A stretch of 53,584 bases of DNA, taken from a virus. Location: the UHGV virus genome UHGV-0183426; one strand, given 5' to 3'. Below are positions 48,733-53,584 of the stretch, in pieces. Position 1 is the first letter of the stretch. Every line of letters starts with the position of its first letter. The notes beneath the pieces were generated by a model. It was not told where the DNA came from and searched no databases. It saw only the letters and a list, made by a program, of their open reading frames with translations. The position numbers and the translations under genes are program-made.

Positions 48733-48915
48733 CTACAAATCACTAACTTTCACCAAATCGCCATTATCAAGCCAGATTTTAATTGTTTCTCGCGTCGTCT
48801 TGATGATTGGCGCTACCCACTCACCATCGCTAACGCAAACGCGAATATCACCACCCTCTACGCGATAAAACATCTTGTCGATTAGTGTTACGGCGTATAT
48901 ACCATCTTCAATCAT
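48733..48915 (-). CDS. hypothetical protein (60 aa)
   Basis: ORF track. Confidence 0.35.
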   Translation of the reverse strand: MIEDGIYAVTLIDKMFYRVEGGDIRVCVSDGEWVAPIIKTTRETIKIWLDNGDLVKVSDL

Positions 48916-49106
48916 TTCTTGCGCTCCTTAATAACCCTTTTGATCTGCGCGCGCGTGGCATCTACGAGAGCAATAAACACCGCTACAGGCCAGAAAGGAA
49001 TCTCAAGACCACCACGATCGAGATCATTAGATTTGATAAAACAAGACATCAGGATAGCGCCAGCAATATAAAGGAGAAACACAGCAATGATAAGACATTC
49101 AATCAT
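48912..49106 (-). CDS. hypothetical membrane protein (64 aa)
   Basis: two hydrophobic segments. Confidence 0.4.
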   Translation of the reverse strand: MIECLIIAVFLLYIAGAILMSCFIKSNDLDRGGLEIPFWPVAVFIALVDATRAQIKRVIKERKK

Positions 49107-49241
49107 CCTCTTTCTCCCCGCCTAAATATTGATATATTTCTTCAGCATTTTCCCCGCGCTCAAAACAATAATGTTCAAACATGCGCCAGTTTTCACTAAG
49201 AAACATAACAATAAAATTATTAACGTATTCGTCATCCATAG

Positions 49242-49493
49242 TTAATCATCCTCTTCATCGTCTTCTTGTTCAGCCAGGAAATCATCGACGTCACGGTAAG
49301 TGACTGGCGGGATGTATTCGAAATCATCAGAATCAAGATCAAGCGTCCGGCTGTCGCCGTCATCGTCCAGCGTGCTCATCCCCAACTCACCGAAAGGGCC
49401 GTACCCAATGTGGCCCAGGTATTCGCAACCAATCGTAAAGCCAGGGTATTCGCCTTTACACCTGATCTTGTATAGCTTACTTGATGCGCTCAA
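49242..49493 (-). CDS. hypothetical protein with highly acidic C-terminal half
   Basis: 83 aa; C-terminus DDDGDSRTLDLDSDDFEY...EQEDDEEDD. Confidence 0.45.
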   Translation of the reverse strand: MSASSKLYKIRCKGEYPGFTIGCEYLGHIGYGPFGELGMSTLDDDGDSRTLDLDSDDFEYIPPVTYRDVDDFLAEQEDDEEDD

Positions 49494-49806
49494 TGTCAGT
49501 TCCCCCTGTTACACCTTCAGTCATTTTGTATTCCGCAACCAGTTCAGCGCCAACCAATCCCACATCAGCATTAGCTATGCCAGGGAACGCCAGATAGGCA
49601 AAAATAAGGCTTTTAATTCTATTCAGGTCTTCAAGATGTTCTGCATTAAAAGGCGGTTCAGATACGTGAAAGCATTTAACGTGCGCATCGTCTTCAGTAG
49701 CTACACGGAAACATACTCAACGTTCACCTGCGAATTGTCCAATTTCTTTATCTTCTGGAAAAGTGCCACGGAAAACTTTAACGCTGATAAATTTAGTCAT
49801 TTTCAT
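49477..49806 (-). pseudogene. small gene interrupted by an in-frame TGA at 49717-49719
   Basis: manual translation: 29 codons, TGA, then 79 codons with no start codon for the first about 50; same frame throughout. Confidence 0.45.
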
Positions 49807-50057
49807 TCTCCTTCGTAAAAAACAGCCACCAATTCAGGATTGTTTAATGGGTTAGGGCAAGAATAAAAACCGCTTCGCAATAATCCTCTAAGCGCTTTCA
49901 TTTTTCTGTGCATCGGGATTGATTCGCTTAAATAGAAATCATCCTTCCTTTTGTCATAAGGTAGCTCATAAAACCTACCATAATTGACAAATTGAACTAC
50001 GCGGCAAAACTCACCATCAGCCTTGCTATTGCCGCGCCACAGTTTTATTATTTCCAT
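49803..50057 (-). CDS. hypothetical protein, paralog A1
   Basis: 84 aa; paralogous to 50076..50333 (LWRG...DGE..RV...VN.GRFYEL.Y). Confidence 0.5.
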   Translation of the reverse strand: MEIIKLWRGNSKADGEFCRVVQFVNYGRFYELPYDKRKDDFYLSESIPMHRKMKALRGLLRSGFYSCPNPLNNPELVAVFYEGE

Positions 50058-50075
50058 ATCACACCTATTAATTAC

Positions 50076-50333
50076 TCATTCTACTTCGTAAAGAGTCGTC
50101 ACCAGTTCGGCATCTACTAACGTGTTGTGATCTGTATAAAACCCGTGGCGCATTGCGAAAGCTATTTCTCCACGCAGCTTCCGCCACATAGGAGTTGATT
50201 CATTCAGATATTTGTTCTCCCTTTTCTCGCTGTATGCCAGTTCATAAAAACGACCACGATTAACATCTTCAATCACGCGGCTGTACTCGCCATCGAGCAT
50301 ACTAACGCCGCGCCATAGTCTGATCACAACCAT
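50076..50333 (-). CDS. hypothetical protein, paralog A2
   Basis: 85 aa; tandem paralog of 49803..50057. Confidence 0.5.
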   Translation of the reverse strand: MVVIRLWRGVSMLDGEYSRVIEDVNRGRFYELAYSEKRENKYLNESTPMWRKLRGEIAFAMRHGFYTDHNTLVDAELVTTLYEVE

Positions 50334-50335
50334 AA

Positions 50336-50635
50336 TTAAAACTCCGCACCAGGTAAGCTACGCGCTTTATGCACAGTGTCCTTTTCAAGCCACATATTAG
50401 AATGCATATCCATTGTGGATATAGCGGCAACTGGCGAATAATTATTTACTGAGTTGATGTGAAATAGTTGATTTCTGGTAAAAATCATATCGTCATCGGT
50501 TATATATAACCAATCGCCGCGCTTACCAACAACAACATGCGATCTGCCTAAGCTGTCTTTAAATTCATAATTGCAGAAAACATCACCTTTAGGCACTTCA
50601 ACAAAACAGCAAGCAATGAATTTGTCGCTTTTCAT
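50336..50635 (-). CDS. hypothetical protein
   Basis: ORF track 50336..50665; start trimmed to an internal Met. Confidence 0.4.
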   Translation of the reverse strand: MKSDKFIACCFVEVPKGDVFCNYEFKDSLGRSHVVVGKRGDWLYITDDDMIFTRNQLFHINSVNNYSPVAAISTMDMHSNMWLEKDTVHKARSLPGAEF

Positions 50636-50829
50636 AATTACACCCTTCTGGTTTGATGGGGCCATCCAGCCCCGTGTTTTATTCTTCTTCGTCTCCTTTA
50701 AATCCTAAACACTCCGCGTATTCGTCAATGCTTAATGCTTCTTCACCTGGTGCCAGTAATTCAAAGTATCTTGCGTACAGTTCGAAAACCCAGGCCGGAT
50801 ATTTAGCGTTAGCGTTCATGGTTTCCCCC

Positions 50830-51834: not shown

Positions 51835-52080
51835 TCAGAAAACCCCTTTATAATCTACCGTGTATTTTGCTATCAGATTCCAGTCGCAATAATTAAGCAT
51901 GTCGCGCGGTTGCCAGCCTTTCATCCCGACCGCCCGCCGCGCAGCGTGACGACGATAATCATCGTTATAGTCAGCCATGCACCACGGCTGGAGAACAAAC
52001 ATATAATTTGCTTCATTAACCAGGATAGCCACCCGCTTTCCTGTTGCCTTGTCTTTTGCCCTGAAATAATTCACTTTCAT
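51835..52080 (-). CDS. hypothetical protein (81 aa)
   Basis: ORF track. Confidence 0.4.
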   Translation of the reverse strand: MKVNYFRAKDKATGKRVAILVNEANYMFVLQPWCMADYNDDYRRHAARRAVGMKGWQPRDMLNYCDWNLIAKYTVDYKGVF

Positions 52081-52292
52081 TTTAACACCTCGTCGATCAA
52101 CATTTCTTCTTCCAGGTTAGCCGGACGTTTACGAAATATCCCGGCAAAAACCAGATCTTCGAGTAGGTCTTTACGCTTAAATAACCACTCTTTCATTATT
52201 ACCCCGTCGTCGCTGCGATATACGACGCCGCTTTTCAGAAAATAAAAAGTGCGACTATTGGTCTGTAGGTAGAGATCTTCGTAAACGTCCAT
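52077..52292 (-). CDS. hypothetical protein (71 aa)
   Basis: ORF track. Confidence 0.4.
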   Translation of the reverse strand: MDVYEDLYLQTNSRTFYFLKSGVVYRSDDGVIMKEWLFKRKDLLEDLVFAGIFRKRPANLEEEMLIDEVLK

Positions 52293-52296
52293 ACCG

Positions 52297-52524
52297 TTAA
52301 TCCTCTACAATCTCAAGCCCGCGCCCCTTGTCCCCGACGAAATCGCCCATGCTGAACGTATACGACCACGCCGGATTGATGTAATGGTCATCAGCACCAG
52401 CAGCAATGAGATCAGCACCATTAATCATGCAAGTAATATCATCGCTATGAACGACATTAACGACCTTACCAACAACCTGTTTCAATGACGGGTATCCGTG
52501 ATCGTGCAAGAATTTAACTTTCAT
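52297..52524 (-). CDS. hypothetical protein (75 aa)
   Basis: ORF track. Confidence 0.4.
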   Translation of the reverse strand: MKVKFLHDHGYPSLKQVVGKVVNVVHSDDITCMINGADLIAAGADDHYINPAWSYTFSMGDFVGDKGRGLEIVED

Positions 52525-52754
52525 TCGTCTGCCTCCCAGCGGTCTATGCTGATTAAAAAGTCCCGGATAGCGTGTCGTTCGTCACGCGTTGGCTTGCGCT
52601 TACGGTAAATCTTAAAGTCAAACCATTCTTTTTCTTGTTCGAAATCCATGTCGTAAGCAAGCGCCTCAATATATCCGCAGTCGTGATACTGGTACGCCAC
52701 GCCAGCACGAACAAAAAAGCGGGTTTTATCCCGCTTGTGTTCATAAATACGCAT
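52521..52754 (-). CDS. hypothetical protein (77 aa)
   Basis: ORF track. Confidence 0.4.
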   Translation of the reverse strand: MRIYEHKRDKTRFFVRAGVAYQYHDCGYIEALAYDMDFEQEKEWFDFKIYRKRKPTRDERHAIRDFLISIDRWEADE

Positions 52755-52764
52755 ATTTACCCCG

Positions 52765-52995
52765 TTATGCAGTTGTGTAGCTGTCTACCAGCTTTTCATC
52801 CTTCATTCTTGCAAGCTGTGCAATGTTCATCGTGTAGCCTTCATCAGAGAAAAGCAATTCCGCAGCTTTGCGACGAAAAACAATATCATCATGGTTGTGC
52901 GTCCATGTGGCGATCACCACGCGTTTTCCGTCAGTGGCAAACATTGTTAATTCATTATCAACTACGTCGATAGCCTGCCAGATTTTTAGCTCCAT
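52765..52995 (-). CDS. hypothetical protein (76 aa)
   Basis: ORF track. Confidence 0.4.
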   Translation of the reverse strand: MELKIWQAIDVVDNELTMFATDGKRVVIATWTHNHDDIVFRRKAAELLFSDEGYTMNIAQLARMKDEKLVDSYTTA

Positions 52996-53351
52996 GATTT
53001 ATCCCCGTAAATTTTGAATAATTCCCGTGCTTCCTGATCTCCAAATATCTTCATATGCAGGTCATGCAGTCGTCGCATTGTGCGTAAGCGCGGTCTAAAT
53101 TCCTGACTTCGTTTAATGTATTTACCGCCAATTGAATAAATATGCCCGTATGAATACCATCTGTTGCCTACCCATATGTCATATTCTTTGCCTTCGTAAT
53201 TAAATTTGATTGTTAGCTCCCCGAATTCCATTATTAATCCTTTGTCGAGGATGTCATTAAGCATTTCGTCCCATTCTTTCAGGAATGGTTTCTGATAAAA
53301 ACCGAAAAGCGTATTTGCAGCGTAGCAAAGGTAATCAATGATTATTTGCAT
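52986..53351 (-). CDS. hypothetical protein (121 aa)
   Basis: ORF track. Confidence 0.4.
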   Translation of the reverse strand: MQIIIDYLCYAANTLFGFYQKPFLKEWDEMLNDILDKGLIMEFGELTIKFNYEGKEYDIWVGNRWYSYGHIYSIGGKYIKRSQEFRPRLRTMRRLHDLHMKIFGDQEARELFKIYGDKSWS

Positions 53352-53355
53352 ATTA

Positions 53356-53571
53356 TCACCACATCATATAATAAACGTTATCGTTAGCTACTTCGTCGGC
53401 TTGTTCTTGTGTTAATAGCGGCGCACTTTCCATAAAAGCATCAGAATAATGCCACTCATAAACAAGCATACGCGCCCATTTGCGGCGCTGGCGCTTATTG
53501 TGTCGCAGGTCGTCAAAAGCCTTTAATGCTTTATCATACGCCCTTACCAGGCGTTTACGGTTACTTTTCAT
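53356..53571 (-). CDS. hypothetical basic protein (71 aa)
   Basis: ORF track; its RBS (GGAAGGG) is formed by the terminal 7-mer. Confidence 0.4.
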   Translation of the reverse strand: MKSNRKRLVRAYDKALKAFDDLRHNKRQRRKWARMLVYEWHYSDAFMESAPLLTQEQADEVANDNVYYMMW

Positions 53572-53584
53572 TTTTCACCCTTCC

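Follow-up and report, generated by a model that had tools for sequence, protein, structure and literature searches.

In lambda- and P22-like phages, the nin region holds delayed-early accessory genes between P and Q, within the N-antiterminated pR operon. Q proteins of the lambda type load onto RNA polymerase at a promoter-proximal pause, which is caused by a -10-like element. In Shiga toxin (Stx) phages, the cargo (stx genes and tRNAs) lies between pR'/tR' and S, depends on Q and is often of foreign composition. Here, we analyze the interval between the Q antiterminator gene and the lysis cassette of the virus genome UHGV-0183426; the whole stretch, 53,584 nucleotides (nt) long, is referred to as the window. 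This interval holds a block of small genes. The block is most likely an accessory array of the mEpimmI phage lineage that forms the distal part of a delayed-early rightward operon, with the late promoter positioned beyond the array; we put the probability of this reading at roughly 0.6.

The closest described systems are the mEpimmI phages, a group of temperate coliphages reported in 2025 that depend on Nus factors, are not lambdoid and are common in the human gut (Negrete-Mendez et al. 2025, PMC11893012). An N-like antiterminator, Gp17, is reported there to act at nutL, nutR1 and nutR2; the genes of the Q-to-holin interval are labelled hypothetical protein, and, in the sections consulted, the interval, its transcription and its paralog families are not analyzed (PMC11893012).

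DNA-level comparison places the window in this mEpimmI (mEp021-like) group. The block is 85-91% identical to the same interval of mEp021, mEp010, mEp013, mEp044, mEp515, mEp554 and MagusPhagus. The better matches cover 63-88% of the block and have the same flanking genes; in the short-interval phages mEp013, mEp021 and mEp515 the coverage is 35-45%. Matching prophages occur in 35 of 5426 complete E. coli genomes. All of these phages, and the mEpimmI prophages, share with the window the locus, its flanks (ninG, rusA and Q on one side; holin, lysozyme and Rz on the other), the gene order and the core. Three lesions are the window's own: its ASCH-like gene is truncated, its phrog_23107 gene is frameshifted, and the stem of its holin-proximal terminator has a mismatch.

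The relatives compared comprise 13 GenBank genomes and 44 IMG/VR contigs (57 relatives), and gene content was tabulated in the window and the 13 GenBank relatives (14 genomes). The window was treated as a circle, so that the gene chain runs through both of its ends. These ends are contiguous in relatives, since the gene homologous to oJ, a truncated open reading frame (ORF) described below, runs across both.

Putative late promoter module at the holin end

The features that bear on the position of the late promoter are:

569-1291, minus strand: Q antiterminator of the lambda type, 240 amino acids (aa) (Pfam PF03589, E=1e-29)
48628-48732, minus strand: putative late promoter, pause element and terminator module, the 105 nt directly before the holin
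48703-48698, minus strand: -10 hexamer TAAAAT of the module
48690-48685, minus strand: -10-like AACAAT of the module
48669-48653, minus strand: hairpin of the module
48652-48642, minus strand: U-tract of the module
48639-48635, minus strand: ribosome-binding site GGAGG of the module
47476..48627, minus strand: lysis cassette, with holin (48427-48627, PF16080), lysozyme (47934-48506, PF00959) and Rz-like spanin (47476-47946, PF03245)

The Q protein belongs to the lambda family, being 35% identical to lambda Q over its full length (E=3e-48). Relative to lambda Q it has a 31-aa insertion, which contributes an additional CxxC pair. Outside the mEpimmI group, its closest match is the Q of phage SE1 (38% identity). 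The Q stop codon overlaps the start of the next ORF, which is o1 in the window and o5 in mEp021, so there is no promoter space after Q. Among the 44 IMG/VR loci, none has Q directly beside the holin-proximal module.

The module reads AAACAAAYAGAT-TAAAAT-ATTWCCT-AACAAT-GCGAAAYTGTAAYTA-CCCGGCC(loop)GCCGGG-TTTTTGCTTTG-TTGGAGG-(7 nt)-ATG. Its spacing is thus: TAAAAT; 7 nt; AACAAT; ~15 nt; a 7-bp GC hairpin; and a U-tract. In the window and in the 57 relatives, the module precedes the holin ATG by 78-80 nt, and both GATTAAAATA and CCTAACAATGCGAAA are invariant in those relatives, whatever gene precedes the module. The spacer core, AAACAAAYAGAT, is nearly invariant, with 2 of 27 upstream variants differing by one base; a Q-binding site is not recognizable from sequence alone.

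The late promoters of lambda, P22 and SE1, as read from their records, contain a -10 hexamer, 6 nt, AACGAT/AACGAA/AACAGT, a short leader, and a GC hairpin with a U-tract. The module has the same lambda-type order: a -10 hexamer; a -10-like pause element at about +1 to +6; and then an intrinsic terminator. As in lambda pR'-qut-tR', P22 and SE1, a lambda-family Q is present, 6-7 nt separate the -10 hexamer from an AACNNT element, and the short leader with its GC hairpin and U-tract stands ahead of the lysis genes. In contrast to lambda pR'-qut-tR', the putative module is separated from Q by 2.0-6.8 kilobases (kb) of genes instead of a few tens of bases. Its leader is only ~40 nt long and runs straight into the holin ribosome-binding site, and its -35 element is weak or absent. 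Because there is no room next to Q, and because the holin-end element is the only invariant non-coding one with late-promoter anatomy, we infer that a Q-dependent late promoter and terminator lie at 48628-48732, downstream of the block.

Within the terminator stem of the module (48653-48669), the window alone among 58 genomes carries a G-to-A change, giving CCCAGCC instead of CCCGGCC. The predicted hairpin strength weakens from ~-19 to ~-13 kcal/mol. Readthrough into the lysis genes could be leaky as a result, or the change may stem from decay or from an error in sequencing.

Two other elements considered in this region were rejected. ACAAUGCGAAAUUGU was examined as a boxB-like RNA hairpin within the module; a common T-to-C variant breaks its stem without compensation. 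A match to the -10/AACGAT pattern at 564 lies inside o1, a gene that several relatives lack.

Terminator-like hairpins and a nut-like site

Upstream of the module, the block contains two terminator-like hairpins, and a nut-like site precedes the genes leading to Q:

52707-52736, minus strand: Ta, hairpin AAGCGGGATAAAACCCGCTT and then TTTTGT, resembling an intrinsic terminator, within codons 7-16 of o6
51144-51185, minus strand: Tb, hairpin resembling a terminator (11-bp stem, then TTTTGTTAT), between o12 and o13
2931-2963, minus strand: nutR2-like site read from the sequence, boxA TGCTCTTTAAAAA and, after it, a small hairpin whose loop contains GAAA, upstream of ninF, ninG, rusA, Q and the block
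2106-2711, minus strand: NinG
1681-2109, minus strand: RusA
1470-1706, minus strand: u78, a paralog of o10/o11 upstream of Q (blastp to o10, E=1.4e-5)
1291-1473, minus strand: u60, a small 60-aa ORF between u78 and Q

The hairpin Ta is embedded in coding sequence, and its T-run encodes Phe-Phe of o6. The stem is unchanged in 56 of 60 genomes, and one further genome has a wobble variant. In mEp010, two synonymous changes restore pairing (GCGGG/CCCGC to GCGCG/CGCGC). Of the 60 genomes, 46 have Tb, which the original prediction had noticed as an inverted repeat; its arms are conserved, and its loop occurs in 11 variants. The records of mEp044, mEp010 and mEp554 carry ARNold terminators at the position of Tb, and the ARNold terminators predicted in relatives correspond to Tb and to the holin-proximal terminator.

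The position of the site at 2931-2963 fits the placement of nutR2 in mEp021 (PMC11893012). On the basis of this position and its boxA, the site is provisionally assigned as nutR2.

The block as an ordered array of protein-coding genes

Between Q and the holin there are 22 minus-strand ORFs of 46-121 aa plus one frameshifted pseudogene, in a chain that is unbroken to 48733:

369-569, minus strand: o1, 66 aa, start overlapping the Q stop (phrog_35000, E=5e-39; dN/dS 0.10)
110-391, minus strand: o2, 93 aa (phrog_29262, E=4e-52)
53561..126, minus strand: oJ, 49 aa, spanning the window ends (5' part 1..126, 3' part 53561..53584), remnant of an ASCH-like gene
53356-53571, minus strand: o3, 71 aa (phrog_8758)
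52986-53351, minus strand: o4, 121 aa, the largest ORF of the block (phrog_16975)
52765-52995, minus strand: o5, core, present in 13/13 relatives
52521-52754, minus strand: o6, core, contains Ta, present in 13/13 relatives
52297-52524, minus strand: o7, core, present in 13/13 relatives
52077-52292, minus strand: o8, core, homologue of mEp021 gp41 (89% identical)
51835-52080, minus strand: o9, 81 aa, the fifth core gene (phrog_38609), present in 13/13 relatives
51617-51832, minus strand: o10, tandem paralog of o11 (phrog_31142)
51368-51607, minus strand: o11, tandem paralog of o10 (phrog_31142)
51200-51361, minus strand: o12, C-terminal half of family x4 (hhalign 100%)
50830-51102, minus strand: o13, acidic
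50679-50852, minus strand: o14, acidic, the ATG at 50819 being probably the true start
50336-50665, minus strand: o15
50076-50333, minus strand: o16, tandem paralog of o17 (phrog_32200)
49803-50057, minus strand: o17, tandem paralog of o16 (phrog_32200)
49477-49806, minus strand: frameshifted pseudogene (spliced translation against phrog_23107 positions 1-107/107, E=1e-57)
49242-49493, minus strand: o18, acidic, modelled as an SH3-like barrel with an acidic C-terminal helix
49099-49239, minus strand: o19, acidic
48912-49106, minus strand: o20, 64 aa, one N-terminal transmembrane segment
48733-48915, minus strand: o21, member of a third paralog family

Adjacent ORFs overlap or lie at most 18 nt apart, with two exceptions: a 97-nt gap (51103-51199), which holds the inverted repeat Tb, and the 105-nt gap (48628-48732) before the holin. 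An apparent 309-nt gap at 49494-49802 is the frameshifted gene, which is intact, at 107 aa, in 10 of 13 relatives. The other damaged gene, oJ, consists of the first 40 codons of an ASCH-like gene (annotated as an RNA-binding protein, ~100 aa in relatives), fused by a deletion to the last codons of the next gene. Over those 40 codons, identity with the genes of mEp044 and LSU61 is 85-90%; what followed them has been deleted.

The block is made up of 22 genuinely protein-coding small genes and one decayed gene. Compared with homologues in 13 relatives, every ORF tested has a ratio of nonsynonymous to synonymous substitution rates (dN/dS) of 0.04-0.24, with Q at 0.10 and the holin at 0.11; oJ and the frameshifted pseudogene stood outside this test. 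The interval is coding over 91-100% of its length, on one strand only. Matches to PHROGs were found for 19 of the 22 ORFs, every one to a family of unknown function. Scans of all small ORFs against Pfam, NCBIfam and PADLOC gave no match, apart from an insignificant one to GapS1 (E=0.005), and PDB sequence searches with the block proteins found nothing. The tight coupling of about 22 minus-strand ORFs claimed by the original prediction is borne out, as is its statement that the block has no recognizable late gene, none having appeared in the domain-library scans.

Across the 57 relatives the Q-to-holin distance ranges from 2.0 to 6.8 kb (5.5 kb in the window), and the interval holds 8-28 ORFs: 8 in mEp021, 22 in the window and as many as 28 in strain M1/5. 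All 14 tabulated genomes have the same, collinear gene order. Five genes, o5-o9, are present in each of the 13 tabulated relatives at 65-99% identity (o5-o8: 65-97%), and they make up five of the eight genes in the minimal intervals of mEp021 and mEp515. This core has the lowest dN/dS of the block (0.04-0.14). The remaining genes are present or absent in blocks, and genomes differ by tandem duplications, neighbour-fusing deletions and frameshift decay. The array evolves by these three routes around a fixed five-gene core.

Since the G+C content is native (0.42-0.46, no different from the remaining window), the gene order is collinear and the five-gene core is universal in the tabulated relatives, the block is an ordered, native and partly dispensable array and not imported cargo. 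Searches of the block found no tRNAs and no Rfam families. As a separate observation, deletions between array neighbours have produced chimeric ORFs in several relatives (L002-L013; P0045, P0048, P0049); mEp013_60, for example, joins the 5' part of o11 to the 3' part of o21.

Proposed expression of the array and alternative explanations

Taken in aggregate, the comparisons liken the block to a nin region. Like the lambda/P22 nin region, the block strings together small genes that overlap and can each be dispensed with; they occupy the early strand and run co-linear with ninF, ninG, rusA and Q. A nut-like site precedes the block, terminators interrupt it, and its content is mosaic when relatives are compared. 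Of the block genes, only o4 has a homologue from the nin region of another phage: gp59 of Edwardsiella phage Edno5 (41% identical), which is located between P and NinG/Q. Together with u78, a block paralog upstream of Q, this homologue fits an extended nin-type early region. Unlike a nin region, the block is downstream of Q and not between the replication genes and Q, where only u78 and u60 precede Q; its early timing is, moreover, deduced from sequence. No block gene matched the named Nin families in the domain-library scans.

If the late promoter lies after the block, the block would be transcribed together with Q from the early rightward promoter. The operon would then run in the order nutR2, ninF, ninG, rusA, Q and block, with the array translationally chained to Q, and the block would function as a lambda-type nin region extended past Q. 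RNA polymerase made termination-resistant by the N-like Gp17 would read through Ta, inside o6, and Tb, between o12 and o13. Given these two terminators, expression is predicted to depend on antitermination: the block genes would be silent in the lysogen and expressed along with Q after induction or infection. Q would act on a promoter 5.5 kb from its own gene in the window, and 2.0-6.8 kb away in relatives. Among the products, which may be small binders in the cytoplasm, are at least one SH3-like barrel that ends in an acidic helix, several strongly acidic proteins and one membrane-anchored protein; presumably they modulate host or defence functions.

Several points weigh against this reading. 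At the -35 position, the module variant of the window has TCGCGC, which does not match TTGACA; TTGTAG stands there in the second variant. The pattern of a -10 hexamer, 6-7 nt and AACRNT is not rare, with 6 matches in the window against 7.6 expected; what argues for a late module is therefore its fixed position and its invariance. It is unusual in lambda-type Q systems for kilobases to separate Q from the promoter on which it acts. Both the timing and the use of promoters are deduced here from nucleotide sequence. The protein families are tiny and restricted to this phage group, and no database match supports any protein function. Finally, gp41 of mEp021, the homologue of o8, is encoded upstream of the lysis genes and was detected by mass spectrometry in virions purified on cesium chloride (CsCl; PMC11893012); this would fit late expression of at least the core.

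The virion finding (PMC11893012) also favors an alternative in which the block is Stx-like late-operon cargo, virion proteins being normally late. Here, a Q-dependent promoter next to Q would give late, high expression, and Q-modified polymerase would pass Ta, Tb and the pre-holin terminator. The block does lie between Q and S, as Stx cargo does, its content varies among relatives (2.0-6.8 kb, 8-28 ORFs), and three terminator-like hairpins are available for an antiterminated polymerase to pass. A candidate promoter, CTGGCA-16-GATAAT, is present within o5 (52981-52954), with Ta ~220 nt downstream, a spacing like that of lambda pR'-tR'. This candidate was rejected, however, as its -10 element has a T-to-C change in 5 of 14 genomes and its -35 element is altered in 2; promoter-like matches in the region are no commoner than in shuffled sequence. 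The stop/start overlap in both the window and mEp021 leaves no intergenic space after Q, and late-promoter anatomy is found in only one invariant non-coding element, the one next to the holin, placing the putative late promoter after the block and not before it. Unlike Stx cargo, the block has native composition, no tRNAs and no self-contained moron units, and is a collinear array with a fixed core. Late-operon cargo is thus an unlikely explanation. Of the cargo proposal made in the original prediction, the part that survives is a flexible, accessory block of unknown function; the analogy to the Stx Q-to-S interval is not supported, given the lack of promoter space after Q, the module at the holin end and the native array.

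A second alternative is confined to the core. If o5-o9 had a morphogenetic or virion-associated role, for instance by being co-packaged with the DNA as small proteins, dispensability would be limited to the flanks of the block. The retention of o5-o9 at 65-99% identity in 13/13 GenBank relatives, their dN/dS values, the lowest of the block, and their survival as five of eight genes in the minimal mEp021 and mEp515 intervals are in keeping with this idea, as is the detection of gp41 in CsCl-purified virions (PMC11893012). Yet none of the core proteins resembles a structural protein family. Just 4 representatives of the o8 family were found in a set of 1.84 billion proteins, and the homologues of o7 in rV5-like virulent phages (43-45% identity) are annotated as hypothetical only. 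An Ssb-like protein was also found in the virions (PMC11893012), and carry-over of abundant DNA-binding proteins is therefore possible. The original prediction had named as its refutation an interval that is conserved and syntenic in all relatives with defined morphogenetic functions; the interval is syntenic in the relatives examined, but no morphogenetic function is defined for it, gp41 in virions being the one exception (PMC11893012). A morphogenetic or virion-associated role for the core is, on balance, improbable.

That the ORFs are chance open frames or remnants in mostly non-coding filler, as their shortness, their lack of domain matches and the two decayed genes of the window might suggest, is refuted by the substitution pattern (the same in every tested ORF as for Q and the holin), and the one-strand coding density, the PHROG matches for 19 of 22 ORFs and the reading frames kept in 57 relatives all stand against it.

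With the accessory-array reading preferred, the Q-to-lysis interval of mEpimmI phages is an ordered array with a fixed core and not random cargo, and the window adds another member to the group. If the putative late promoter is confirmed, the group would be a natural example in which 2-7 kb separate a lambda-type Q gene from the site that it targets. Such uncoupling bears on the old question of why Q and its site normally adjoin. The separation of Q from its putative target, the coding-embedded terminator with a compensatory change and the compact set of orphan proteins are points of modest interest.

Protein families, acidic proteins and structural models

The tandem paralogs o16 and o17 are clear, at 48% identity (E=4e-26). 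The pair o10 and o11 is diverged, with 30% identity (E=2e-5; hhalign 96.5%). Both families had been proposed in the original prediction, along with a third short copy of o10/o11. For o12 as that copy there is no support: it is the C-terminal half of family x4 (hhalign 100%), which is itself only weakly linked to o10 (hhalign 32%). A paralog of o10/o11 that had been missed is u78, upstream of Q (1470-1706); among the 13 relatives compared, only mEp044 has it. A third tandem family in relatives comprises o21 and the gp45-like 'x1' and 'x7' (hhalign 96%).

Strongly acidic proteins had also been claimed, and four small proteins are of this kind, with isoelectric points (pI) of 4.05-4.47: o18 (pI 4.05, net charge -17); o13 (pI 4.37, net charge -14); o19 (pI 4.08, net charge -10); and o14 (pI 4.47, net charge -8). 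In this respect they resemble DNA mimics. The further suggestion that they are DNA-mimic or anti-defence proteins fares less well, as no Pfam, NCBIfam, PADLOC or PDB match links them to such functions. In particular, no Pfam, NCBIfam or PDB sequence match relates them to Ocr, ArdA or similar mimics, and the modelled fold of o18 is SH3-like.

This AlphaFold 2 (AF2) model of o18 is confident, with a predicted local distance difference test score (pLDDT) of 87. It shows a five-stranded SH3/Tudor-like barrel with a C-terminal acidic helix, and its best structural matches are SH3 and Tudor domains. In relatives, the acidic tail of o18 is fused to other N-terminal domains. The AF2 model of o10 has low confidence (pLDDT 49). 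Large protein searches returned 59 clusters for o18, 15 for o13 and 22 for an o10/o11/u78 profile, all unannotated and nearly all close kin of the queries.

It is reasonable, but only as a guess, that the block encodes small proteins that bind host or defence proteins. A more elaborate proposal, which we regard as doubtful, sees in the array a diversifying set of binders for early host takeover or anti-defence. Its position between a lambda-type Q gene and the target promoter would show that kilobases of genes can break the Q-to-site linkage. Such a set would be built largely on an SH3-like barrel scaffold (o10, o11, u78, o18 and relatives) with an exchangeable acidic tail, and o8 would be packaged into virions and delivered with the DNA. 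Whatever their roles, the 20-odd conserved, lineage-restricted proteins under purifying selection offer a compact candidate set for anti-defence or host-takeover screens, although this analysis assigns them no such role. For o20, encoded two genes upstream of the holin, the single transmembrane segment could indicate a lysis modulator or an exclusion protein.

Other observations near the block

In the Q protein (569-1291), a sub-threshold match to the DnaJ CXXCXGXG family was recorded (E=9e-6).

Beyond the lysis cassette, 278 nt of non-coding sequence (47198-47475) come after the Rz-like gene. The motif TAAAAT-TCTGGA-AACGGT in this stretch repeats the pattern of the holin-proximal module, a -10 followed by AACNNT, and the matching gap in mEp021 has an annotated terminator, TERM_6.

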